Source of the DNA: Atribacterota bacterium | Lineage (GTDB): Bacteria > Atribacterota > Phoenicimicrobiia > Phoenicimicrobiales > Stramentimicrobiaceae | Direction: 5' to 3' | Assembly: GCA_040767965.1 (NCBI GenBank) | Contig: JAXGNR010000004.1 | Coordinates: 352,001-416,000 of the forward strand | Length of the DNA stretch: 64,000 nucleotides | Part shown: positions 1,990-13,845 of the stretch, in pieces | How positions within the stretch are numbered: the stretch's first letter is position 1 | Layout of the letters: each line of letters opens with the position of its first letter | The notes under the pieces: generated by a model | The model's input: only the letters and a program-made list of their open reading frames with translations | What the model was told of the DNA's origin: nothing | Database searches by the model: none | Made by a program: the position numbers and the translations under genes

Positions 1990-2837
1990 TGGCTTATATC
2001 CTTTTTCATTTTCAAAACTTTTTCTCTGGTAATAGTAACAAAATTGTCTGTTTCATCAAGACCTTTATGAGCAGCAATTATCCCACGAGATGAATTGATA
2101 ACTGCATTAATATTATTTTTAAATATTCTGGAAAAGTCTTTCCCGGTACCTCCCTGTGCTCCATAGCCAGGAATAAGGAAAAACGTGTGCCGGGCTACGT
2201 TTTTTATTTTGATGAATTCTTCAGGGTAGGTTAATCCTACCACTGCCCCAATGGTACTATAATTGTACTTACCTCTAAATTTCTCTCCCCATTCCTCAAT
2301 TTTCCTGGCAACATGCAGGTAAAGAGGTTGTCCTTCAACTACTAATTCCTGGAAGTCTTGTGAGCTTGGATTAGAAGTTTTTGCTAGGATAAATAATCCT
2401 TTTTCTCCATTATCTAAATATGGGAAATAAGGTTCAATAGCATCTAGTCCCATATATGGGTTGATAGTAAGAAAATCTGCCTCAAAATCACCTGAAAAAT
2501 GACCTTGCGCATATTCTTGTGCAGTAGAAAAAATATCACCACGCTTAACATCGGCAATAACTATATTTTCTTTTTTTCTAATATGTGCCAGGGTTTTTTG
2601 ATAAGCCTGAAGTCCCAGGATGCCATGTGCTTCATAACAGGCAATTTGTACTTTATAACAAGCAGTAATATCCGAAGTGTTATCAATAATAGCTTTATTA
2701 AAAAGAAATAATTTGTCTGCAATACTTATGTCCTGTTTACAGGCAAGAGAATCTGGAAGATAATCTAATCTGGTGTCAAGCCCTATGCAGACCGGCCCTC
2801 TTTCTTTTACTAATTCATAAAGTTTATCTATTATCAT
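1980..2837 (-). CDS. pyrF: Orotidine-5'-phosphate decarboxylase (subfamily 2)
   Basis: CIGLD, DVKRGDI, PGYGAQGG, NSSRGII motifs. Confidence 0.96.
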   Translation of the reverse strand: MIIDKLYELVKERGPVCIGLDTRLDYLPDSLACKQDISIADKLFLFNKAIIDNTSDITACYKVQIACYEAHGILGLQAYQKTLAHIRKKENIVIADVKRGDIFSTAQEYAQGHFSGDFEADFLTINPYMGLDAIEPYFPYLDNGEKGLFILAKTSNPSSQDFQELVVEGQPLYLHVARKIEEWGEKFRGKYNYSTIGAVVGLTYPEEFIKIKNVARHTFFLIPGYGAQGGTGKDFSRIFKNNINAVINSSRGIIAAHKGLDETDNFVTITREKVLKMKKDISQWR

Positions 2838-3987
2838 ATTTAATTTTTCCTTCTTTAAAAGTCATCAAAATTTTTCCATATACCACTTGTCCTAAAAAAG
2901 GTGTATTTCCTGCCTTAGAATGTAGAATATGCCTATTTATTTCATATTTTTTACTTAAATCGATAAGAACAAAATTAGCTTTAGAATAAATTTCAGAAAG
3001 AAAACTGGTTTTTTCAATCCCTAATAGTTTTGCTGGTTTTTCTGACATTAATTTACTCAGCAATTGAATACTGATATTGTATTTTTTGAAAAGAGTATAC
3101 ACAAGAGAAAAAGCGTGATCGAACTCAATTAAACCCCGGGCACCTTTAAGTTTATCTTCACTGCTATGAGGAGCATGATCTGTAGCAATAATGTCAACAG
3201 TTCCATCCAGCAGTCCTTCCAGTAAAGCTTCAGCATCTTCTTTCTTGCGAAAGGGGGGATGTACCATATAATCCAGATCATAGCTGAACAGATGATGTGG
3301 TGTAACTTCACAGCTAAATTCCAATCCTTTGCTTTTTGCCTTTCTTATAATCTGAAGGCTGTCTTTTTTGCTAACATGGCAAATATGTAAATTACCTCCG
3401 TATAATTTAAGTAACTCCAAATCCCGGGTAATTATTTCTGTTTCAGGTTCACAATGAGTGAGTATTTTAAAGTTATACTTTGTTGATGCCTGCAATGCTT
3501 TTATCATAGTATTTTCATCTTTTATAGGGATCCCATCATTGGAAAAAAGTCGGGTATAGGTAATCATTTTCTCAAAATCTACCAGATTAGTGGTATCAAG
3601 TCCATAAGTAACTGCTGAAATGGGGATTACATTACACAATCCCAGTTTTTGTGCCTTGTTTATAATATAATTGATTGTTTCTGGATTATCGCAAACAGGC
3701 AGAGTATTTGCCATACAGCAAATGGTGGTAAAACCGCCGGCCAAAGCAGCCTGTTGTCCACTTTCCAGATCTTCCTTATAAGTATATCCGGGATCTCTTA
3801 AATGGCAATGCAAATCTATAAAAGAAGGAAGTAGACCCCAATTCTCACCTGGAATAATTTCTGTGATAGATTCATTATTGACATTATTATCTTCCAGTAC
3901 TATAAAATTACCCTTCTTAATTAATATACTGGCAATCCTATCAGTATCTGAATCAATTATTCTAATATTCTTTAATAATACAGACAT
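2824..3987 (-). CDS. pyrC: Dihydroorotase
   Basis: DLHCHLRDPG, MANTLP, CEVTPHHL, IATDHAPH metal-binding motifs. Confidence 0.95.
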   Translation of the reverse strand: MSVLLKNIRIIDSDTDRIASILIKKGNFIVLEDNNVNNESITEIIPGENWGLLPSFIDLHCHLRDPGYTYKEDLESGQQAALAGGFTTICCMANTLPVCDNPETINYIINKAQKLGLCNVIPISAVTYGLDTTNLVDFEKMITYTRLFSNDGIPIKDENTMIKALQASTKYNFKILTHCEPETEIITRDLELLKLYGGNLHICHVSKKDSLQIIRKAKSKGLEFSCEVTPHHLFSYDLDYMVHPPFRKKEDAEALLEGLLDGTVDIIATDHAPHSSEDKLKGARGLIEFDHAFSLVYTLFKKYNISIQLLSKLMSEKPAKLLGIEKTSFLSEIYSKANFVLIDLSKKYEINRHILHSKAGNTPFLGQVVYGKILMTFKEGKIKYDNR

Positions 3988-3996
3988 TTCAATTAC

Positions 3997-4419
3997 CTAA
4001 ATTCTTGTTTTTTCATGACAATATTCACATTGATATTCCCCAATAGCAGGGTTAACCAGAGTAAACTCGATATCGCCAACATTTTCAACAGTGCTAATGC
4101 ATCTTGGATTTTTACATTTTAAAATACCATAGACCTTTTTGGGTAGTTCAAGTTTTATCTTCTTTTTCCTTTGTCCGTTTTCTATAATATTAATGGTGAC
4201 TCCTGAGTCTATTAATCCTAAGACAGTTAAATCAAGATAAATATCATTTTCTATTTTGATAAGGTCTTTTACTCCCATTTTAGTAGAAGGAATGTTCCTA
4301 AGCAATACTACGGTATCATCTAATTTATCCAGGCTTAACTGGCTAAATATTTTATATCCATTTCCAGACTTGATATGATCTATTACAATCCCTTTTTTTA
4401 ATTTGGAAACATTTATCAT
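3997..4419 (-). CDS. pyrI: Aspartate carbamoyltransferase regulatory chain
   Basis: [14 protein letters not shown], Zn-binding CKNPRCIS...CEYC. Confidence 0.96.
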
Positions 4420-5339
4420 AAATTATCTCCTTTCCCAAGTATCTTGGATATCAAAGCCATTCTAATAAACATTCCATATCTTGCTTGTTTGAAGTAAACT
4501 GCTCTTTCATCATCATCAACTTCAGCGGCTATTTCGTTAACTCTTGGCAGAGGATGCATAATGAGCATATCTTCATTTGCCATTTTTAAAATTTCATTGT
4601 TTAAGATATAAGAGTCTTTTAAACGCAAGTATTCCTGCTCACTAAAAAATCTTTCTTTTTGGATTCTGGTCATATAAAGTATGTCCAATTTGCCGATACT
4701 ATTTTCCAAAGAATTTGTTTCCTGATAGGATTCTTTACCAATTCCTTCTTTTATATAATCAGGAATACGTAATTCTTCTGGAGATATGAATACAAAATTA
4801 ATATTCGGGTATCTGGAAAGAATTTTAGTTAAAGAGTGGGTAGTTCTGCCAAACTTTAAATCTCCGCATAATCCAATTGTAAAATTGCTGATTGAACCTT
4901 TTAATTGTTTGATAGTCAGTAAATCTGTTAAGGTTTGGGTTGGGTGCTGATGACCGCCATCTCCGGCATTTATGACAGGTACCCTAGAATGTTTTGAAGC
5001 AAGTTTAGGTGCTCCTTCTTTTGGATGTCTGATAATAATTAAATCAGCATAACCAGAAATTGTCTGTATTGTATCTACTAGACTTTCTCCCTTAGAAACA
5101 GAAGAAGACATTGCATCTGCAAAGCCAATTACCTGTCCTCCTAATCTCAGGATAGCCGATTCAAAACTAAATTTTGTTCTGGTAGATGGTTCATAAAAGA
5201 GAGTAGCAATTAAATTGCCCTTGCAAAGGTTGGAATAATCATGTTCATTTTTTATAATTTCTGTTGCATAAGAGATCAGATCATCTATTTCCTCGAAAGA
5301 AAAATCATTTACTTCAATTAAATGCTTTCCTTTTATCAT
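4416..5339 (-). CDS. pyrB: Aspartate carbamoyltransferase catalytic chain
   Basis: [34 protein letters not shown]. Confidence 0.98.
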
Positions 5340-5347
5340 ACAAATCC

Positions 5348-5380
5348 TCCTTTTCAGTCTCTCCAGGACTAAATTAAAGT
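5348..5380 (-). promoter_or_regulatory. PyrR-binding RNA loop overlapping the pyrB ribosome-binding site
   Basis: Minus strand ACTTTAATTTAGTCCTGGAGAGACTGAAAAGGA matches the PyrR-site pattern CUUUAA..AGUCC.G.GAG.CU..GAAAG, and its 3' end runs into the AGGAGG RBS. Confidence 0.8.
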
Positions 5381-5389
5381 TTTTTACAT

Positions 5390-5420
5390 AAAAAAACCTT
5401 TTCGTATAAAACGAAAAGGT
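5390..5420 (-). terminator. Attenuator terminator in pyr leader
   Basis: Minus strand ACCTTTTCGT-TTTAT-ACGAAAAGGT followed by a T run. Confidence 0.85.
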
Positions 5421-5477
5421 AAATTTGAATTAATCTTTATTATTCTATGCTTTAAGAAGAAATATCTCATGAGTATA

Positions 5478-5508
5478 GCCTTTCTAACATCTCGTGTTAG
5501 TTTAAAGA
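5478..5508 (-). promoter_or_regulatory. Second, more divergent PyrR-binding loop upstream of the leader terminator
   Basis: Minus strand TCTTTAAA-CTAACA-CGAGA-TGTTAG-AAAGGC: CUUUAA, GAGA-loop hairpin and GAAAGG, positioned as an anti-antiterminator. Confidence 0.6.
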
Positions 5509-5517
5509 TTCCACAAA

Positions 5518-5546
5518 ATAATATATCATCGCTTTCAGATTGTCAA
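5518..5546 (-). promoter_or_regulatory. sigma70-type promoter of pyr operon
   Basis: Minus strand TTGACA-17 nt-TATTAT. Confidence 0.7.
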
Positions 5547-5714
5547 TAAGAGAGTCTAATTTTTTAAATAATGATTTTTTAAGAATAGTGCTTCAAATAT
5601 ACTATAAATTGAAATATTACTATGAAAAAAATCAGTTATTGTAATATAATAAAAATTATTATTATTATTTATTAATTGGATAAAAACTTTAAATAAAAAC
5701 AACCCAGAGAAAGG

Positions 5715-6488
5715 ATGAGAAAAATCAGTACACAATTTATTGAGACGCACGCCCACCTAGATATGATAAAAAGGAAATCTTCAGATGTTGTGCAAGAGGC
5801 CCTGACAAATGGTGTTTTTAAAATAATAACTATTGGAGTAGATATAGAATCCAGTGAAGATAATTTACTTTTATCTGAGAAATTAGAAAATGTCTATACC
5901 GCTATTGGCTTCCATCCGCATGAGAGCAAAAAAATGAACTCAGATGAATATTTTAAGTTGGAAAAAATGCTTTTAAATCCTAAAAATGTTGCACTTGGGG
6001 AAATTGGATTAGATTATTATTATCAACATAGTACTATTGAAGAACAAAAAACAGCTTTTCGTGAGCAGATTGACCTGGCAAAAAAATATGATTTACCTAT
6101 CATAATCCATGATAGAGATGCCCACCAGGATACTATGGAAATCCTGAAGGAAAAAGGGAAAAACTTAAAGATAGTTTTCCATTGCTTTTCTGGTGATCGT
6201 CAAATGGCTCAATGGTGTATAAAAAATAATTATTATTTTGGTATTGGCGGAGTTGTGACTTTCAAAAATGCGAAAAATTTAGTACAGATAGTTAAAGAGA
6301 TACCGCTGAAGAATATACTTTTGGAAACAGATTCACCTTTCTTAACTCCAATTCCTTATAGAGGCAAACCTAATGAACCAAAGTATATTCCGATAATTGC
6401 TGAAAAGATTGCTGAAATAAAAGGGATAAAAATTGACGAAGTTGGAAAGGTTACCACTGAAAATGCCCGAAAAATTTTTAATTTCTAA
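5715..6488 (+). CDS. tatD: TatD family metallohydrolase/DNase
   Basis: THAHLD, GFHPH, GEIGLDY, IHDRDA, HCFSG, LETDSPFL. Confidence 0.93.
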   Translation: MRKISTQFIETHAHLDMIKRKSSDVVQEALTNGVFKIITIGVDIESSEDNLLLSEKLENVYTAIGFHPHESKKMNSDEYFKLEKMLLNPKNVALGEIGLDYYYQHSTIEEQKTAFREQIDLAKKYDLPIIIHDRDAHQDTMEILKEKGKNLKIVFHCFSGDRQMAQWCIKNNYYFGIGGVVTFKNAKNLVQIVKEIPLKNILLETDSPFLTPIPYRGKPNEPKYIPIIAEKIAEIKGIKIDEVGKVTTENARKIFNF

Positions 6489-6591
6489 TTAAGAAATTAA
6501 GAACAAAGGAATTATATAGCTGGCGTGATGGAGATTTCACCAGTTGTTAATTTAGTTAATTAAATTGAAAAAATATTTCTTGCAACTTCCG

Positions 6592-6620
6592 TTGACTTTT
6601 TTATATTTAACAGGTATTAT
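6592..6620 (+). promoter_or_regulatory. sigma70-type promoter for leader peptide/ABC operon
   Basis: TTGACT-17 nt-TATTAT, 38 nt upstream of the leader ATG. Confidence 0.7.
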
Positions 6621-6658
6621 ATTTTTAACATTTAAAAATACTGAAAAGATAATAAATT

Positions 6659-6724
6659 ATGAAAACAAATAATATAATACAACAATTTTATAATTATTTT
6701 TACTACTATTATATTCCGGGGTAA
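6659..6724 (+). CDS. Tyr/Phe-rich attenuator leader peptide, 21 aa (MKTNNIIQQFYNYFYYYYIPG)
   Basis: Manual translation. Six Tyr and two Phe codons in a 9-codon run, followed by alternative hairpins and terminators. RBS is weak. Confidence 0.8.
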   Translation: MKTNNIIQQFYNYFYYYYIPG

Positions 6725-6774
6725 GTGCCTAGCGGTTTGGTAGTAGTAAGAAAAAATCATTTTGATAAAATATA

Positions 6775-6852
6775 CCACAGGCATTTACCTCAGAAAAATG
6801 CCTGTGGTTTTTTGTTTGCAACCACGGGTGTATAAAACATTCGTGGTTTTTT
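6775..6852 (+). terminator. Two tandem intrinsic terminator hairpins in the ABC operon leader
   Basis: ACCACAGGCATTT...AAATGCCTGTGGT+TTTTT and AACCACGGGTGT...ACATTCGTGGTT+TTTT. Confidence 0.85.
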
Positions 6853-6965
6853 ATATTTAAAAAAGAAAGGAGATGATTGATAGCCAAATAATTAGATCAA
6901 AAGATGATTGTTCAAAGCAAAACAAGTATGAAACTGTTCTTTAATAAAAAAAAGGAGGAAATAAA

Positions 6966-7988
6966 ATGAGAGCAAAAAATAATAGATCAATGATTTTTAC
7001 AGCAATTATTCTTGTGTTTACTGTAATTTTCTTATTCACCGGGATTTCTGCCCTGGCCAGTCCTTTAAAAATTGGAGTGAGCCAGATAGTAGAACATCCT
7101 GCTCTTGACAATTGTCGGGATGGCTTTGTAGATGGACTAGAAAAAGCAGGCTATGTTACAGGTGAAGATGTTGTTTATGATTTCCAAAATGCACAGGGAG
7201 AATTTAGCAATGCAATTTCTATTGCTCAGAAATTTAAAGATGATAAGGTAGATATGATTTTTGCAATTTCTACACCTATTGCCCAGGCGTCTGTCCAGGT
7301 TACTAACGATATTCCTATAATAATCTGCGCTATTACTGATCCGATAGCAGCGAATATTGCTGAAAGCTGGGAAAGCTCAGGAAATAATGTTACTGGAATG
7401 TCTGACGCAGCCCCCAATGAAGCACAATTAAAACTGATACCAAGATTTTTCCCTCAAGCAACGAAGGTGGGAACTATTTATAATGCAGGGGAGGCTAATT
7501 CTGTTGTCCAGGTTGAACTTTCCAGAGAAATATGCAAAGATCTAGGTTTAGAATTAGTCGAAACTACAGTCAGTAATTCTAATGAAGTTTTGATGGCTGC
7601 TCAATCCTTGGCTGGCAGAATTGATGTTTTTTATATTGTCACAGACAATGTTGCTGTTTCTGCTATCAGTTCAATTGTTAAAGTTTCTTTAGAGGAAAAA
7701 ATACCTATAATACTTGCTGATCCAACTAATGTTCCTGATGGTGGATTTGCCTCTTTTGGAATAGATTACTATACATTAGGGCAAAAAAGTGCTGAAAAAG
7801 CTGTCCAGGTTATTGAAGGAGCAGCCCCCAAAGAGATTCCTATCGGAAAACTCGATAAAGCTGATGAATTAAAATTTGTTATCAATATCGATGTAGCTCA
7901 GGAAATAGGAATTGCCATACCTGAAGAAATTTTACAGGAAGCTGATACTATTATTTTTAGTAGTACTAGCTGGAATCGCAGTGAATAG
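6966..7988 (+). CDS. ABC transporter substrate-binding protein, putative Trp/Tyr (TrpX-like) family
   Basis: Signal peptide; QIVEHPALD, QNAQGE, AITDP, NVTGMSD, EANS, TDN motifs. Confidence 0.88.
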   Translation: MRAKNNRSMIFTAIILVFTVIFLFTGISALASPLKIGVSQIVEHPALDNCRDGFVDGLEKAGYVTGEDVVYDFQNAQGEFSNAISIAQKFKDDKVDMIFAISTPIAQASVQVTNDIPIIICAITDPIAANIAESWESSGNNVTGMSDAAPNEAQLKLIPRFFPQATKVGTIYNAGEANSVVQVELSREICKDLGLELVETTVSNSNEVLMAAQSLAGRIDVFYIVTDNVAVSAISSIVKVSLEEKIPIILADPTNVPDGGFASFGIDYYTLGQKSAEKAVQVIEGAAPKEIPIGKLDKADELKFVINIDVAQEIGIAIPEEILQEADTIIFSSTSWNRSE

Positions 7989-8026
7989 ATTAAAGATATG
8001 TTAAAAAGAGGAGGAGTTAACATAAA

Positions 8027-8956
8027 ATGAGTTGGAGCTTAGTATTTCATGCAATAGAACAGGGACTTGTTTTTGGTCTGATGGCTTTAGGTGTTTATAT
8101 CACTTTTCAGGTTTTAGATTTCCCTGATTTGTCTGTTGATGGCAGCTTTCCTTTGGGTGCTGCTATTGCAGCCAAAATAATATTCTCAGGAGGACATCCT
8201 TTGGCTGCTATATTATTTGCAGTAATTGGTGGTATAATGGCAGGAGGTTTGACTGCTTTTTTCCATACCCGTCTTAAATTTACAAATCTTTTGTCTGGAA
8301 TATTAACTATGACTTTGTTGTATTCAGTAAACTTGAGGATTATGGGGAAATCCAATATTCCTTTATTAGGGAAAATTACTATTCTTGATAATATTAAAAG
8401 TTTGTTTCCTTTTTTGTCAACAGACCAGTTAACTCCTTTACTTTTTCTATTTATAGTAATTTTAGTAAAGTTATTACTTGACTATTTTTTATCTACAGAA
8501 ATTGGCATGACTATCAGGGCCACTGGAGATAATGAACAAATGATTCGCAGTCTGGGAGTAGATACAAAAGTAACCAAAATAATAGGATTATGCTTATCTA
8601 ATGGTTTAGTAGCATTTTCCGGAGCTTTATTTGCCCAATATTCTGGTTTTTCTGATGTTGGAATGGGTATAGGAACTATTGTATCAGGTCTGGCTTCTGT
8701 AATAATTGGAAGAAGCATAATTAAAAATGGTAGCATCTTTTGGATGACTACCAGTGTAATTATAGGTTCGATAATTTATCGTGCAACTGTAATGATTGCC
8801 TTAAGATATGGTTATCGTCTTGGGTTCCAACCAGGAGATTTAAAACTGATTTCTGTTGTTCTGGTAGTTATTGCCCTAACTTTCCCAATGGTCAGAGGGA
8901 GTGTAAATGCTATAATTGCCTCAAATGGTTCAGATACCACAGAAAAAGAAAAGTAA
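8027..8956 (+). CDS. ABC transporter permease (same system)
   Basis: GVYITFQVLDFPDLSVDGSFPLG, IRATGDN, GLCLSNGLVAFSGAL; multiple TM segments. Confidence 0.9.
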   Translation: MSWSLVFHAIEQGLVFGLMALGVYITFQVLDFPDLSVDGSFPLGAAIAAKIIFSGGHPLAAILFAVIGGIMAGGLTAFFHTRLKFTNLLSGILTMTLLYSVNLRIMGKSNIPLLGKITILDNIKSLFPFLSTDQLTPLLFLFIVILVKLLLDYFLSTEIGMTIRATGDNEQMIRSLGVDTKVTKIIGLCLSNGLVAFSGALFAQYSGFSDVGMGIGTIVSGLASVIIGRSIIKNGSIFWMTTSVIIGSIIYRATVMIALRYGYRLGFQPGDLKLISVVLVVIALTFPMVRGSVNAIIASNGSDTTEKEK

Positions 8957-8972
8957 GAGGAGGATAATAACT

Positions 8973-9764
8973 ATGCTGCGTTTAAAGTCAGTATATAAAT
9001 GTTTTGCAAAAGGAACCACTTATGAAGTAAATGCTTTAACAGGTATTAGTCTAAAAATATCTGAAGGTGATTTTATAACTATAATCGGTAGTAATGGAGC
9101 AGGTAAATCTACTCTTTTAAATATTATATCAGGGACTATGTTACCGGATCGGGGAATCATTAAAATCAATAACCAGGATGTAACTAAGAAACCCGAGCAT
9201 TTTCGGGCAAAATATATTGGTAGAGTATTCCAGGATCCGTTAATGGGGACTGCACCATCTATGAGCATAGAAGAAAATCTTGCTCTTTCTATCCAGCGTT
9301 TTGGCAGAAGCTTAAGATTAGGCTTAAACAGTGAACGTAGGGAATATTTTCGAACAAAATTGGCAGAATTAGGACTAGGGCTAGAGGGAATGCTAAATAA
9401 GAAAGTTGCTTTATTGTCTGGAGGACAAAGACAAGCACTTACTATACTAATGGCTACCATGTTCGATCCCAAGATACTACTACTGGATGAACATACTGCT
9501 TCTCTGGATCCAGGTATAAGCAAAAAAATACAATCAATTACCCAGGAAATAGTAAAAGAAAAAAAATTAACTACTATTATGGTAACTCATAATATGCAAG
9601 AAGCATTGAGATTAGGCAATAGGACTATTATGATGGATCGTGGACGAGTTATTCTAGATATTTCCGGTAAAGAAAAAGAAAATGTTACAATTGATTATTT
9701 ATTGAAACAGTTTGCTAAGTTAAGAAAAGAAGAATACATCGAAGATGAATTAGTACTGGCTTAA
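8973..9764 (+). CDS. ABC transporter ATP-binding protein
   Basis: GSNGAGKST, RVFQDP, LSGGQRQ, LLLDEHTA. Start placed at ATG 8973 after GAGGAGG. Confidence 0.93.
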   Translation: MLRLKSVYKCFAKGTTYEVNALTGISLKISEGDFITIIGSNGAGKSTLLNIISGTMLPDRGIIKINNQDVTKKPEHFRAKYIGRVFQDPLMGTAPSMSIEENLALSIQRFGRSLRLGLNSERREYFRTKLAELGLGLEGMLNKKVALLSGGQRQALTILMATMFDPKILLLDEHTASLDPGISKKIQSITQEIVKEKKLTTIMVTHNMQEALRLGNRTIMMDRGRVILDISGKEKENVTIDYLLKQFAKLRKEEYIEDELVLA

Positions 9765-9852
9765 TTTATAAATAAATTTCATACAGACAGATTAACCTAC
9801 AAAGTAATTATTTTGTTGTTTAAAAGAATTAATAAAAAGAATAAATAGACAT

Positions 9853-9884
9853 AAAAATCCCCGCATAATTTTGGGGATTTTTTA
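9853..9884 (+). terminator. Intrinsic terminator after ABC operon
   Basis: AAAAATCCCCG...TGGGGATTTTTT. Confidence 0.7.
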
Positions 9885-9979
9885 TTTATGGTAAAATATA
9901 CTAAATAATTAAAAAAAGTTATAAGTTATTTTATTCAAATTTTTTAAGAAATGAAAAAGCAGAAAGTATCGGGGGACAC

Positions 9980-11182
9980 ATGACTAAAAAATTATACCAT
10001 CTGGACTCTTATCAAACTGAATTTAAAGCAGTTATTTTAGAAAAAAAATTAGAAAATAATAGGACTTATTTAATATTAGATCATACATATTTTTACCCCG
10101 AGGCAGGTGGACAATTATGTGACAAAGGTTTTATTGAAGGAATACCAGTCATTGATGTACAAGAGAGGAACGGGGAGATCTTGCATTTTTTAAAAGAGGA
10201 AATTGATAGCAATCCTGGTAGTACAGTAAAAGGAGAAATAGACTGGGAAATACGTTTTGATCATATGCAGCAGCATACCGGACAGCACCTTCTTTCAGCT
10301 GTCTTGCTGGATTTGTGGAATCTGGATACGCTTTCGTTTCATATGAGCGAAGATGTGTGCACAATAGATATTAATGATACTGAGATTGATGAAGCAAAAT
10401 TAAAATGCCTGGAAAAAAAAGTGAACAGCATTATTTATGCCAATAAGCCTATTTTAAATTATTATCTTGAAGACCAAAAAGAAAACTCAGGCAGTATTAA
10501 TATTAGAAAAATAGCTTCTCTACAGGAAAAAATGCGTATAATTGAAATTGAAAATGTTGATAAAAATGCCTGTGGAGGAACTCATTGCAAGGCAACTGGT
10601 GAAATAGGTGTAATAAAAATAATCAACTGGGAACACCGAAAAGAGAAACTAAGATTATATTTTTTGTGTGGCAAGAGAGCCTTACTGGATTATCAGCAAA
10701 AACACCAGATTACTAAACAATTAGCCAATTTCTTTACCACTGGTATTGATCAATTAATAAAGAAAATATTACAGATTAGCCAGGAACAAAAAAATCTAAG
10801 TAAGCAGTGCCGGGCACAAGAAAAAAAATTATTTTATTTAGAAGCAGAGAATCTGATAGATAAATACTGTGAAAAAATGGATGACTATTTTTTGATAAGC
10901 AATATATATTCAGAGATGTCTTTGGATAATATACGGCGAATAGTTTCAATATTGCTGAATAAATCAAATAACAAATACCTGATATCCATTGGGGCAAAAC
11001 AACCAGAACCTATTATTTGTTTAGCTTGTTTTCAAGGCTATCAAATAAATATGGGTGAGTTAGTTAAAAATATCTTATTAACTATTGACGGAAAAGGTGG
11101 AGGTTCTGATTATTTAGGAATTGCAAAACTTAAAAGAGTTAGCGATATTCCCTTGTTTATACAGAAAGCCTCAGGGAATTAG
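9980..11182 (+). CDS. Alanyl-tRNA editing protein (AlaX-like, with C-terminal DHHA1-like domain)
   Basis: FYPEAGGQLCDKG, HMQQHTGQHLLSA, ACGGTHC, GKGGG. Confidence 0.9.
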   Translation: MTKKLYHLDSYQTEFKAVILEKKLENNRTYLILDHTYFYPEAGGQLCDKGFIEGIPVIDVQERNGEILHFLKEEIDSNPGSTVKGEIDWEIRFDHMQQHTGQHLLSAVLLDLWNLDTLSFHMSEDVCTIDINDTEIDEAKLKCLEKKVNSIIYANKPILNYYLEDQKENSGSINIRKIASLQEKMRIIEIENVDKNACGGTHCKATGEIGVIKIINWEHRKEKLRLYFLCGKRALLDYQQKHQITKQLANFFTTGIDQLIKKILQISQEQKNLSKQCRAQEKKLFYLEAENLIDKYCEKMDDYFLISNIYSEMSLDNIRRIVSILLNKSNNKYLISIGAKQPEPIICLACFQGYQINMGELVKNILLTIDGKGGGSDYLGIAKLKRVSDIPLFIQKASGN

Positions 11183-11249
11183 TTAAAGTTAAGCAATAAC
11201 AAAATATTTCAATATCTAAAGATATATTAAAAAATATGAGAGAATAATA

Positions 11250-12392
11250 ATGTTTTCACCAAAGTACATTAAATATAAAATAGTAATTTTCCTTGCCTTA
11301 GCATTATTGATGCCATTTATTTCGATTAATGTTTACTGTTCGGACCGTGATTTTGAAAAAGAAGAAAAAATTGGACAGAAAATGGCAAACAGAATTGAAA
11401 AACGGTATGAGATAGTAGAAGATAAAGAAAATTTAGCCAGAATAAAAGAGATAGGATCTAACCTTATAAAAATATCAGATTTAAAAGAGATAAATTACCA
11501 GATTAAAATAATTGATAGAGAAGGACCGAATGCCTTTGCTTTCCCTGGTGGTTTTATTTATTTAACTGCTGATTTATTTGATCATATCCATTCAGATGAT
11601 GAATTAGCAGCAATTATAGCTCATGAGATGGGGCATATTATTCACCAGCATTCGATAAAACAGATGCAGGATAATCGAAAATTAAAATTAGTTGAATTAT
11701 TTGCTATTTTATTAACAGGTGATCCCGCAATCGGCTTGTTAAGTGAATTGACCACCATAACCATATTGAATTCATATAGTAGAGAATATGAAGAAGAAGC
11801 TGATTTTACCGCATTAGAGCTGTTAAATAAAAGTTCAAAATATAGTCCGGTAGGGCTATTGACCTATTTTGAGAGAATAAGCAGCGAACGATTTTTAAAA
11901 CCTACTGTTAATATGGGAATTTTTCAAACCCATCCAGAAATGAAAGAACGCATTAGAAGAGTTCAACAATTCTTGGATGAGAACAACATTCATATTGATA
12001 GAAGAAAAACCACAAATTATCTTACTGTTTCCGGGGTGGTGGATATTTTTAAAGATATTTCTATAGCGAGGATATTGATTGATGAAGAGGAAATTTTACA
12101 ATTTTCCGGTAAAGAAAGCACCGCCTATCAAAAAATAGATCAGATTTTGAAAAGATTAGACGAATCTTTAAAAATAAGTTTAGAACCTTATCAGATAACA
12201 CTATACACTGATACCAAGAGCAATACCTGTACTATGCGTATAGGTAATAATGTTATTATTTCTTTAGCAGATGAAGAGGTAGAATACCAGGGATTTACTT
12301 CGACAGAAGCGTTGGAAAAAACAAAAAAGAATATCTCTAATATCTTATGGAAGTTAAAATTAAAATTACCTGCTTTATTGCTAAATAGTTAA
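11250..12392 (+). CDS. M48 family zinc metalloprotease, exported
   Basis: N-terminal hydrophobic segment; PNAFAFPGG, AHEMGH, YSREYEEEAD, THP. Confidence 0.9.
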   Translation: MFSPKYIKYKIVIFLALALLMPFISINVYCSDRDFEKEEKIGQKMANRIEKRYEIVEDKENLARIKEIGSNLIKISDLKEINYQIKIIDREGPNAFAFPGGFIYLTADLFDHIHSDDELAAIIAHEMGHIIHQHSIKQMQDNRKLKLVELFAILLTGDPAIGLLSELTTITILNSYSREYEEEADFTALELLNKSSKYSPVGLLTYFERISSERFLKPTVNMGIFQTHPEMKERIRRVQQFLDENNIHIDRRKTTNYLTVSGVVDIFKDISIARILIDEEEILQFSGKESTAYQKIDQILKRLDESLKISLEPYQITLYTDTKSNTCTMRIGNNVIISLADEEVEYQGFTSTEALEKTKKNISNILWKLKLKLPALLLNS

Positions 12393-12412
12393 AAAAGTAA
12401 AAGGGATTAAAA

Positions 12413-12464
12413 AAAGAACAAAACCCGGGAGTCATTTTAAAATGACTCCCGGGTTTTGTTCTTT
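12413..12464. terminator. Perfect 52-bp palindrome between convergent genes (bidirectional terminator)
   Basis: AAAGAACAAAACCCGGGAGTCATTTT|AAAATGACTCCCGGGTTTTGTTCTTT; 26-bp arms with no spacer. Confidence 0.75.
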
Positions 12465-12501
12465 AAATATGTGCTAGTAAAAATTAACAATCATTATAAG
12501 T

Positions 12502-13845
12502 TTAGCCAAGTAAACCTACGCTATTTAAAAAGACCACAAATACAGCAATTGGAACTACATATTTAATCAAGAAAGAATAACTGGAGCCAATTTTAGTTTT
12601 AGCACCATTATTAGCTTCTTCTACAGCCTTATCAGTTCCCCAGAACCATCCTATAAACACTGCTATCAGTAATCCGCCTAAAGGAAGTAAAATATTGTTG
12701 GCAAAGAAGTCAAAAGAGTCCAGGATGTCAAACCCTTTAATTAGTTTTACATGTGAAAGGGTACTATATCCCAGAGATGGGAAGATTCCAAGTATCCAGA
12801 TTGCTATTCCCATTCCAATTGTCGCTTTTTTACGATTCCATTTAATTTCGTCAATAAAGTAGGCGGCAACAACTTCCAGGAGAGAAATTGCAGATGTTAA
12901 GGCTGCTACAGTTAACAGGATAAAGAATATAGTACCAAAAATGTGACCAGCGGCTCCCATTTGGGAAAAAACTGCCGGTAATGTTATAAATGTAAGGCCA
13001 GGTCCTGTGGCAGGTTCCAATCCAAAAGCAAACACTGCAGGGAAAATTACAAATCCTGCTAAAAGGGCAATAATGGTATCAAAAGTAACTACATATTTAG
13101 CATTTAATGGTATATCTTCGTCTTTTTTCAAATAACTGCCGTAAGTTATCATACAACCCATTCCCAGGCTTAAAGTAAAGAATACCTGTCCCAGAGCTGC
13201 TAAGAAACCTTCGGCATTAAATGCGCTGAAATCCGGTCTCAGATAGAAGGACAAACCTTCTCCAGCGCCAGGTAAAGTCACAGAACGAATTATCAGTACT
13301 ATAAGCAACAAAAACAATACAGGCATTAAAATTTTTGACCATTTTTCAATCCCATTTTCAATTCCGCCATAGACAATACCAATGCAGATAGCCATAAAAA
13401 GAGTGTGCCAGAAAATACCACCAAAGGTAGAGGCAATTGAACCAACAAAGATATTAGCGGCATCAGAACCGGCGGCCATATAAGCACCAGACTTAAAGAT
13501 ATAAGAAAGAGACCATCCCGCCACTACTGAATAGTAGGAAAGGATGATGAATCCAGCAAGGACACCCATAAATCCAACGATTATCCATGGACTACCTGGC
13601 GAAAGGGCACTATAAGCACCAACAGGATTCTTTTCAGTTTTACGTCCTAATAACAACTCAGAGGTCATAACCGGATAACCAATAAAAATTAACAACAGGA
13701 TATAAATTAATACAAATGCTCCTCCACCATATCTACCAGTGATATAGGGGAAACGCCAAATATTTCCCAGCCCGATAGCTGAACCGGCAGCTGCAGCAAT
13801 AAATCCTGCACGTGACTGCCAATGTCCTCTTCCATTTTCACTCAT
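12502..13845 (-). CDS. Sodium-dependent transporter, NSS (neurotransmitter:sodium symporter) family
   Basis: GSAIGLGNIWRFPY, GGGAF, GQVFFTLSLGMG, AALTSAISLLE. Confidence 0.95.
   Translation of the reverse strand: MSENGRGHWQSRAGFIAAAAGSAIGLGNIWRFPYITGRYGGGAFVLIYILLLIFIGYPVMTSELLLGRKTEKNPVGAYSALSPGSPWIIVGFMGVLAGFIILSYYSVVAGWSLSYIFKSGAYMAAGSDAANIFVGSIASTFGGIFWHTLFMAICIGIVYGGIENGIEKWSKILMPVLFLLLIVLIIRSVTLPGAGEGLSFYLRPDFSAFNAEGFLAALGQVFFTLSLGMGCMITYGSYLKKDEDIPLNAKYVVTFDTIIALLAGFVIFPAVFAFGLEPATGPGLTFITLPAVFSQMGAAGHIFGTIFFILLTVAALTSAISLLEVVAAYFIDEIKWNRKKATIGMGIAIWILGIFPSLGYSTLSHVKLIKGFDILDSFDFFANNILLPLGGLLIAVFIGWFWGTDKAVEEANNGAKTKIGSSYSFLIKYVVPIAVFVVFLNSVGLLG

Follow-up and report, generated by a model that had tools for sequence, protein, structure and literature searches.

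What governs the transcription of an ATP-binding cassette (ABC) transporter operon in a 64,000-nucleotide (nt) stretch of Atribacterota DNA (contig JAXGNR010000004.1, positions 352,001 to 416,000; the whole stretch is called the window here), and what does this transporter import? Both questions are raised by positions 6592–6852 of the window, which lie upstream of the operon and were taken, in a first-pass annotation made from the sequence alone, for a ribosome-mediated attenuator responding to tyrosine (Tyr). We consider it likely that this region is a leader-peptide transcription attenuator that senses charged tRNA-Tyr and controls an ABC importer of tyrosine, and possibly of other aromatic amino acids. 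The initial proposal is supported by a short upstream open reading frame (uORF) rich in Tyr codons, by two terminators that follow it, by an antiterminator that is mutually exclusive with the first of them, and by the conservation of these elements in related genomes.

All elements of the leader lie on the plus strand. Direct reading of positions 6300–7100 places the uORF at 6659–6724, with its ATG at 6659, 21 codons (MKTNNIIQQFYNYFYYYYIPG) and a TAA stop at 6722–6724; within it, the block F-Y-N-Y-F-Y-Y-Y-Y (6686–6712) contains six Tyr and two phenylalanine (Phe) codons. The uORF is preceded by a promoter-like site at 6592–6620 (TTGACT as −35 at 6592–6597, a 17-nt spacer and TATTAT as −10 at 6615–6620; 10 of 12 matches), an arrangement that agrees with the first-pass description of a promoter ahead of a 21-codon, Tyr-rich frame. 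The number of promoter-like sites returned by the scan (5, versus 4.1 ± 2.2 expected) is by itself not above chance; in 25 of 30 related leaders, a TTGAC[AT]-17-TAnnnT element is present 20–48 nt 5' of the uORF start.

The Tyr codons also take part in RNA structure. The segment TTACTACTA (6700–6708) is the exact reverse complement of TAGTAGTAA (6741–6749), and in RNAfold predictions this stem grows to 15 base pairs (bp), 6697–6711 × 6738–6752. This is the protector stem (P, 6697–6752) that had been postulated between the Tyr codons and about 6741–6749, and it encloses the 5' arm of a first antiterminator (AT1), itself a small hairpin. The AT1 5' arm, GGGGTAAGTGCCT (6718–6730), spans the stop codon of the uORF and pairs with AGGCATTTACCTC (6779–6791), forming a 13-bp helix that includes G-U pairs; its 3' arm, located by folding and alignment, coincides with the 5' arm of the first terminator (T1) and part of the T1 loop, so that the antiterminator foreseen across the stop codon is indeed present. 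T1 (6774–6813) consists of a 13-bp hairpin of −19.3 kcal/mol at 6774–6808, followed by six T at 6808–6813, and the second terminator (T2, 6820–6852) of a 12-bp hairpin at 6820–6848 with a T-tract of six T extending to 6852. Both of the terminators expected after the uORF were thus recovered by scanning and folding, the simple terminator scan reporting T2 alone because the 9-nt loop of T1 exceeds its limit. In addition, the T1 3' arm (6798–6809) can pair with the T2 5' arm (6820–6831) in a second antiterminator (AT2, 6798–6831) of 12 bp, three of them G-U. AT2 reaches −15.2 kcal/mol versus −15.9 kcal/mol for T2, and the 5' arms of T1 and T2 show three differences, all of them transitions that keep the pairing with the T1 3' arm through G-U.

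The whole leader folds at −64.7 kcal/mol versus a mean of −37.7 kcal/mol for shuffled sequences (z = −6.5), and none of 200 shuffles folded as well. Folding with and without the ribosome-covered part masked, a check suggested in the first-pass annotation, showed that T1 gives way to the antiterminator in the window: in the unmasked fold, 6697–6711 and 6738–6752 are paired and both T1 and T2 are formed; with the sequence masked to 6716, AT1 replaces T1 as the minimum-energy structure; and with the sequence masked to 6737, T1 and T2 both form.

The conservation of the leader was followed in a survey of relatives with one genome per species (GTDB representatives). Alignment A1, built from 18 of 120 listed binding-protein homologues, was used for a genome scan that gave 132 pattern matches, 92 of which encode a relative; the best 80 of these 92 loci were used, comprising 34 from Atribacterota (L001–L034) and 46 from other phyla (L035–L080). 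The window's own genome is outside this set, and the best match is 81% identical. The sources of the closest binding-protein homologues (62–81% identity) label them Atribacterota or Atribacteria, which points to an Atribacterota and not to a Firmicute as the organism. An ATG-started uORF with 4–12 consecutive Tyr codons is present in 29 of the 34 Atribacterota loci, beginning roughly 250–340 nt 5' of the binding-protein gene. In L031 the run reads Y-G-Y-Y-Y and is followed by the same downstream helices, and in L005, L017, L023 and L025 the contig ends before the position of the uORF is reached, the segment complementary to the Tyr codons, T1 and T2 still being visible in L005. Hence, a Tyr-rich uORF occupies the same place in all 30 Atribacterota loci that extend far enough upstream, which answers positively whether Tyr-run uORFs are conserved ahead of orthologues of the transporter. 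No further run of at least five Tyr codons was found on either strand of the 80 loci, which together amount to 579,029 bases.

For comparison of the RNA, 30 leaders were assembled, the window counted, and divided into subgroups A (the window and leaders in the range L001–L016; 16 leaders), B (11) and C (3); alignment A3 accommodates all of them well. An in-frame, stop-free ATG no more than 25 codons 5' of the run is found for the Tyr frame in 30/30 leaders, versus 0/30 and 4/30 for the other two frames and 11% of mononucleotide shuffles. The runs contain 131 TAT and 71 TAC codons and vary in length by whole codons. Their interruptions (F, H, N, C) are encoded by single-base neighbours of TAY, so that Tyr, and not Phe, is the conserved signal. 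The peptide lacks conservation outside the Tyr run: a frameshift in the window, L001 and L004 ends the frame inside the AT1 arm, whereas the frame is about six codons longer in the other group A leaders, and despite these changes at the peptide end the RNA sequence of the AT1 arm is kept in all.

The operon downstream of the leader encodes a substrate-binding protein (6966–7988; PF04392, Pfam score of 287.4 bits versus a cut-off of 25.9), an ABC permease (8027–8956; PF02653) and an ABC ATPase (8916–9764; PF00005, with the start as listed by the open reading frame (ORF) finder). The best match of the binding protein in the PDB is 6HNI, the structure of the Clostridioides difficile lipoprotein CD0873 (E = 5e-70, residues 34–320), a protein of the same family for which tyrosine binding is reported, in the accessible part of its description, both in the crystal and by thermal shift (PMC6816091). 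According to the same source, Glu263 of CD0873 bonds the Tyr hydroxyl, a position held by Ala in the Phe/Trp binders 3LKV and 3LFT, and Tyr279 excludes Trp (PMC6816091). In the HMMER alignment, Asp252 and Tyr268 of the window protein correspond to Glu263 and Tyr279, the Trp-excluding residue being therefore kept. Ala-Asp and Tyr are found at these positions in 35/35 Atribacterota proteins, and among the other homologues 45/46 carry Asp or Glu at the position of Glu263 and 45/46 carry Tyr at that of Tyr279. The idea that the transporter imports tyrosine thus gains support from the best solved relative of the binding protein, a demonstrated tyrosine binder, and the substrate is probably tyrosine, possibly together with other aromatic amino acids. 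The leader would in this way predict tyrosine as the substrate of a widespread and poorly annotated importer family, in agreement with the one close relative that has been characterised.

The pairing of the helices is kept across the 30 leaders of alignment A3. AT1 (6718–6730 × 6779–6791) is paired in 97.4% of 389 alignment cells, with 24–52% in controls in which the arms were slid; the outer 9 bp of T1 (6774–6782 × 6800–6808) in 95.9% of 270 cells (slid controls, 28–46%); and 10 bp of AT2 (6799–6808 × 6821–6830) in 94.8% of 291 cells (slid controls, 33–49%). Changes on both sides occur in three pairs of AT1 (15 cells), three pairs of T1 (17 cells) and two pairs of AT2 (9 cells). The score of AT1 and that of T1 were reached by none of 500 shuffles and that of AT2 by one of 500, a control whose significance is overstated by the kinship of the sequences. 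Within group A alone, pairing amounts to 96.1% for AT1, 93.9% for T1 and 89.6% for AT2. The protector stem, evaluated in group A, is paired in 75.4% of 240 cells and has a solid 10-bp core; sliding it by −3 gives 72.9%, nearly as good a value because of codon periodicity.

The position of the uORF relative to these helices suits occlusion by a ribosome. If the footprint is taken to extend 12 nt beyond the first base of the codon in the A site, the entire AT1 5' arm is hidden under a ribosome at the stop codon in 30/30 leaders, and with this footprint T1 is the minimum-energy fold in 30/30. In free RNA, T1 belongs to the minimum-energy fold of 26/30 leaders, and the default state is therefore predicted to be off. 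The end of the run lies 4–9 nt, usually 6, from the AT1 arm, so that stalling at any but the last two Tyr codons (the last one alone in L002, L010 and L014) leaves the whole arm free.

These features can be assembled into a mechanism, described here as the sequence predicts it. Transcription would start about 30 nt 5' of the uORF. With tyrosine plentiful, a ribosome translating the uORF would reach the stop codon and cover 6718–6730; T1 would form, and any read-through would meet T2. In the absence of translation, the Tyr codons would pair with 6738–6752 and sequester the AT1 arm, and both T1 and T2 would form. With tyrosine scarce, the ribosome would stall in the Tyr run and leave the AT1 arm free to pair with the T1 5' arm as soon as the latter is made; the released T1 3' arm would then pair with the T2 5' arm in AT2, and neither terminator would form. 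With both terminators disarmed, the binding-protein, permease and ATPase genes would be transcribed. How T2 is passed had been left unaddressed by the first-pass annotation, and the conserved second antiterminator found here suggests a relay by which one stalled ribosome disarms T1 and T2. Such an apparent relay would pass a single sensing event along the RNA and tighten the off state; we know of no description of this double-lock design, with two terminators disarmed by one stall, for leader-peptide systems.

Several results weigh against this reading or parts of it. At equilibrium, folding with a mid-run stall gives AT1 in 12/30 leaders and T1 in 18/30, including the window, and the two states lie a median of +1.75 kcal/mol apart (range, −8.1 to +10). 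In full-length stalled RNA, AT2 survives in 3/30 leaders, T2 forming in 27/30 and in the window. Moreover, the outcome for the window depends on the assumed edge of the footprint, masking to 6716 giving AT1 and the footprint used for the 30 leaders giving T1. Equilibrium folding was accordingly set aside as a decisive test of the switch. As it reveals no clean switch, the model needs kinetic control, and since T2 beats AT2 once the T2 3' arm has been made, the relay can work only kinetically; in classical attenuators, too, the terminator is more stable than the antiterminator. When the RNA is folded with a mid-run stall and made only up to the T2 5' arm, AT1 together with AT2 is the minimum-energy structure in 28/30 leaders. 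As regards conservation, covariation is modest, most of the variation (notably in AT1) consisting of one-sided G-U changes, and exchanging arms between subgroups costs only about 2 kcal/mol relative to cognate pairing, which is weak evidence of co-evolution. In 16/16 group A leaders the T2 stem is the same throughout, the 3' arm included, whereas compensating changes are seen in T1; such invariance exceeds what a simple terminator needs and the model does not explain it. A Shine-Dalgarno (SD)-like 4-mer, sought 4–20 nt 5' of the in-frame ATG, precedes the uORF in just 2/30 leaders, versus 35/52 long ORFs of the window and 11% of random positions. As for the substrate, the window protein carries Asp252 where CD0873 has the hydroxyl-bonding Glu. 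Finally, in two Clostridiales metagenome-assembled genomes (MAGs), L058 and L060, a T-box lies directly 5' of the binding-protein gene (3680–3932 and 3638–3893, respectively) and its specifier was read as UUC (Phe), though the protein has Glu at the Glu263 position. The register of this reading was calibrated on the L045 T-box 5' of a threonyl-tRNA synthetase gene, which reads ACC; in T-boxes, a purine follows the specifier.

Among the alternatives, the one that survives best retains the attenuator and dispenses with the relay: T2 would be a leaky fail-safe or a separate checkpoint operated by a protein or other factor, and tyrosine starvation would relieve T1 alone. We regard this as unlikely, though it has some evidence in its favour. 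It would agree with the prevalence of T2 over AT2 in full-length stalled leaders and with the invariance of the T2 stem in group A, as well as with the 4 of 16 group A leaders in which AT2 has a mismatch because a T1 pair has changed to C-G. Against it, AT2 pairing is kept in all three subgroups despite their differing arms, a G-C to A-U change within AT2 is seen in 8 sequences, and the three differences between the T1 and T2 5' arms of the window all preserve pairing. AT2 is also about as stable as T2 in group A, and in group B it is longer, the T1 U-tract pairing in addition with the A-tract before T2, with energies of −17 to −22 kcal/mol. The combination of AT1 and AT2 that prevails before the T2 3' arm exists likewise argues for the relay.

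A second alternative removes translation altogether: the UAY repeats and hairpins would bind a protein or a ligand, as in a riboswitch or a trpB-like element, and the uORF would be incidental. This we find improbable. The scarcity of SD-like sequences ahead of the uORF would fit it, and so would a weak resemblance of the T1–T2 part to the trpB motif, a riboswitch candidate (RF04312; 32.5 bits, E = 0.16, at 6776–6858), the best sub-threshold Rfam hit over the element. Nevertheless, this score falls short of the gathering score of 59, and membership in the trpB family was rejected, since none of 10 other Atribacterota leaders matches at E ≤ 1; no Rfam family reaches its gathering score anywhere in the window. 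The ATG, the open frame and the stop are kept in 30/30 leaders, and in the Tyr frame only; run length changes by whole codons with alternation of TAT and TAC; the stop is placed for occlusion of AT1 in 30/30; and no conserved structure other than simple hairpins was found. All of this argues against this alternative. With an SD-like 4-mer in so few uORFs, initiation would have to be SD-independent, and an A-rich sequence precedes the ATG.

The weakest alternative, which we hold to be highly improbable, makes the uORF a separate small gene that encodes a Tyr-rich micropeptide and ends in tandem terminators, the operon having a promoter of its own. It is suggested by the two strong terminators and by the distance from T2 to the binding-protein gene, approximately 110 nt in which a strong SD-like element occurs. 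Against it, the peptide ends are unconserved and truncated by frameshift in three leaders that nevertheless keep the RNA arm, a conserved antiterminator that overlaps T1 would be pointless for a plain terminator, the promoter scan of the window gave no site between T2 and the gene, and the element always lies directly 5' of this operon and was found nowhere else in 579 kb.

The SD-like element just mentioned (AAGGAG in the window, GGAGGTG in relatives) stands, together with a small non-conserved ORF at 6873–6947, at 6866–6947, and is kept in all three leader subgroups, 5' of the ribosome-binding site proper to the binding-protein gene. This conserved element might serve to load ribosomes or to stabilise the mRNA. 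The tiny ORFs that follow it differ: there are 24 codons in the window and only ATG-TAG in most of group B, and in group C an ORF of about 30 codons runs into the start of the gene.

On its upstream side, the leader is flanked by a TatD-family gene that ends at 6488. Directly after the operon, at 9980–11182, there is a gene with tRNA_SAD, a C-terminal piece of the alanyl-tRNA synthetase domain and DHHA1, which we take to resemble an AlaX-type trans-editing protein. Elsewhere in the window, two matches to the PyrR binding site on the minus strand at 5297–5512 (37.2 and 26.3 bits, both below the gathering score of 54) lie 5' of minus-strand genes for the catalytic and regulatory chains of aspartate carbamoyltransferase and an amidohydrolase (2824–5339), and may represent a PyrR-type attenuator. 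A strong symmetric hairpin at 12388–12472, between a plus-strand M48 peptidase gene that ends at 12392 and a minus-strand ORF at 12502–13845, gives miRNA-model matches on both strands and probably terminates transcription in both directions. Two further codon runs were considered and dropped: a His run around 62282 on the minus strand, which is antisense inside a plus-strand ORF, and a (TAY)4 run at 5657–5668, which is AT-rich low-complexity sequence in another frame. Among the surveyed loci, a match to the pyrrolysine insertion sequence PYLIS_2 (50.4 bits versus a threshold of 36) was found at 3299–3398 of L051, a Thermoleophilia MAG, just 5' of the binding-protein gene.

Among known regulatory systems, T-box leaders resemble the proposed attenuator in that they also sense tRNA charging and switch on an aromatic importer of the PF04392 family by transcription antitermination; they differ in that the T-box works without translation, by direct binding of uncharged tRNA. 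A T-box leader upstream of a homologous transporter is reported for TrpX of S. suis, in the accessible part of the corresponding article (PMC9382623). The statement in the first-pass annotation that homologous transporters in Firmicutes are usually under T-box control was not upheld in this sample, a T-box lying directly 5' of the binding-protein gene in only 2 of the 33 non-Atribacterota loci scanned. In the window, the T-box model (RF00230) has no match at 5000–13000 at E ≤ 10 and none at gathering score overall. In five Bacillota MAGs (L042–L045 and L049), a T-box is located 3' of the transporter operon; that of L045 (5697–5946), whose specifier reads ACC (Thr), is followed by a threonyl-tRNA synthetase gene whose product has TGS and tRNA_SAD domains.

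The trpB motif offers a different kind of similarity. In the accessible part of the report by Narunsky et al. (2024), it is described as a strong but orphan riboswitch candidate that occurs in Firmicutes and Fusobacteria; of its two hairpins, the first carries an antiterminator in its right shoulder and the second is a terminator, and it is found most often 5' of an uncharacterised ABC amino-acid transporter; its authors state there that a classic attenuator could not be excluded (PMC11109978). In the literature searched, we found no other paper on this motif. The right-shoulder antiterminator follows the same logic as AT2, and an ABC amino-acid transporter lies downstream in both cases, while in Atribacterota the Tyr uORF comes before the first hairpin, which has a U-tract and is a terminator in its own right. 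The likeness is therefore a resemblance of design, not membership. It nevertheless suggests re-reading the trpB motif as half of an attenuator: if the relay described here operates (the uORF arm pairing with the 5' arm of T1, and the 3' arm of T1 then with the 5' arm of T2), the motif may by extension be the downstream half of leader-peptide attenuators and not a ligand-binding riboswitch, a reading that, with relay and extension taken together, we advance tentatively, as possible though open to considerable doubt.

Outside Atribacterota, 41 of the 46 loci had enough upstream DNA to be inspected, and a Tyr-run uORF was clear in L048 and doubtful in L036. In L048, from a member of the Halobacteroidaceae whose binding protein is 42% identical, positions 2830–3000 contain a promoter and the uORF MINLPSAFSSFYYSYYYVLFTGE, which has a canonical SD sequence and is followed by one terminator only and then by GGAGGTG. 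This is a second, simpler Tyr-rich leader, and it too speaks for tyrosine as the substrate. In the literature searched, which leaves most subscription journals outside, neither a tyrosine-specific leader peptide nor a paper pairing Atribacterota with leader peptides was found. The nearest case is the AroR leader of C. glutamicum (Phe-Tyr-Phe), for which the accessible part of a review describes a response to Phe and not to Tyr (PMC11802643), and the accessible part of the survey by Naville and Gautheret (2010) includes a His leader in Firmicutes and reports no Tyr leader (PMC2965389).

The closest parallel is with the classical attenuators of Proteobacteria and Actinobacteria (trp, phe, his, leu, thr, ilv), which share with the Atribacterota leader a short uORF with a codon run for the regulatory amino acid, the selection of alternative helices by the position of the ribosome, and termination as the default without translation. 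The Atribacterota leader differs from them in having Tyr codons and controlling an importer rather than a biosynthetic operon, in its two successive terminators linked by a second antiterminator, in the location of the antiterminator 5' arm inside the loop of the protector stem and not after it, and in a uORF without an SD sequence. A chain of more than four pairing segments is also known from the his attenuator. The Rfam model of the threonine leader (Thr_leader, RF00506) scores 24.8 bits in the window and 26.8–28.2 bits in two relatives, versus a gathering score of 55. Judged from these comparisons, the element would be an Atribacterota variant of ribosome-mediated attenuation that is specific for tyrosine, controls an importer and has two terminators, which a relay probably links. 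If so, ribosome-mediated attenuation would extend to tyrosine, to a transporter and to a largely uncultured phylum.

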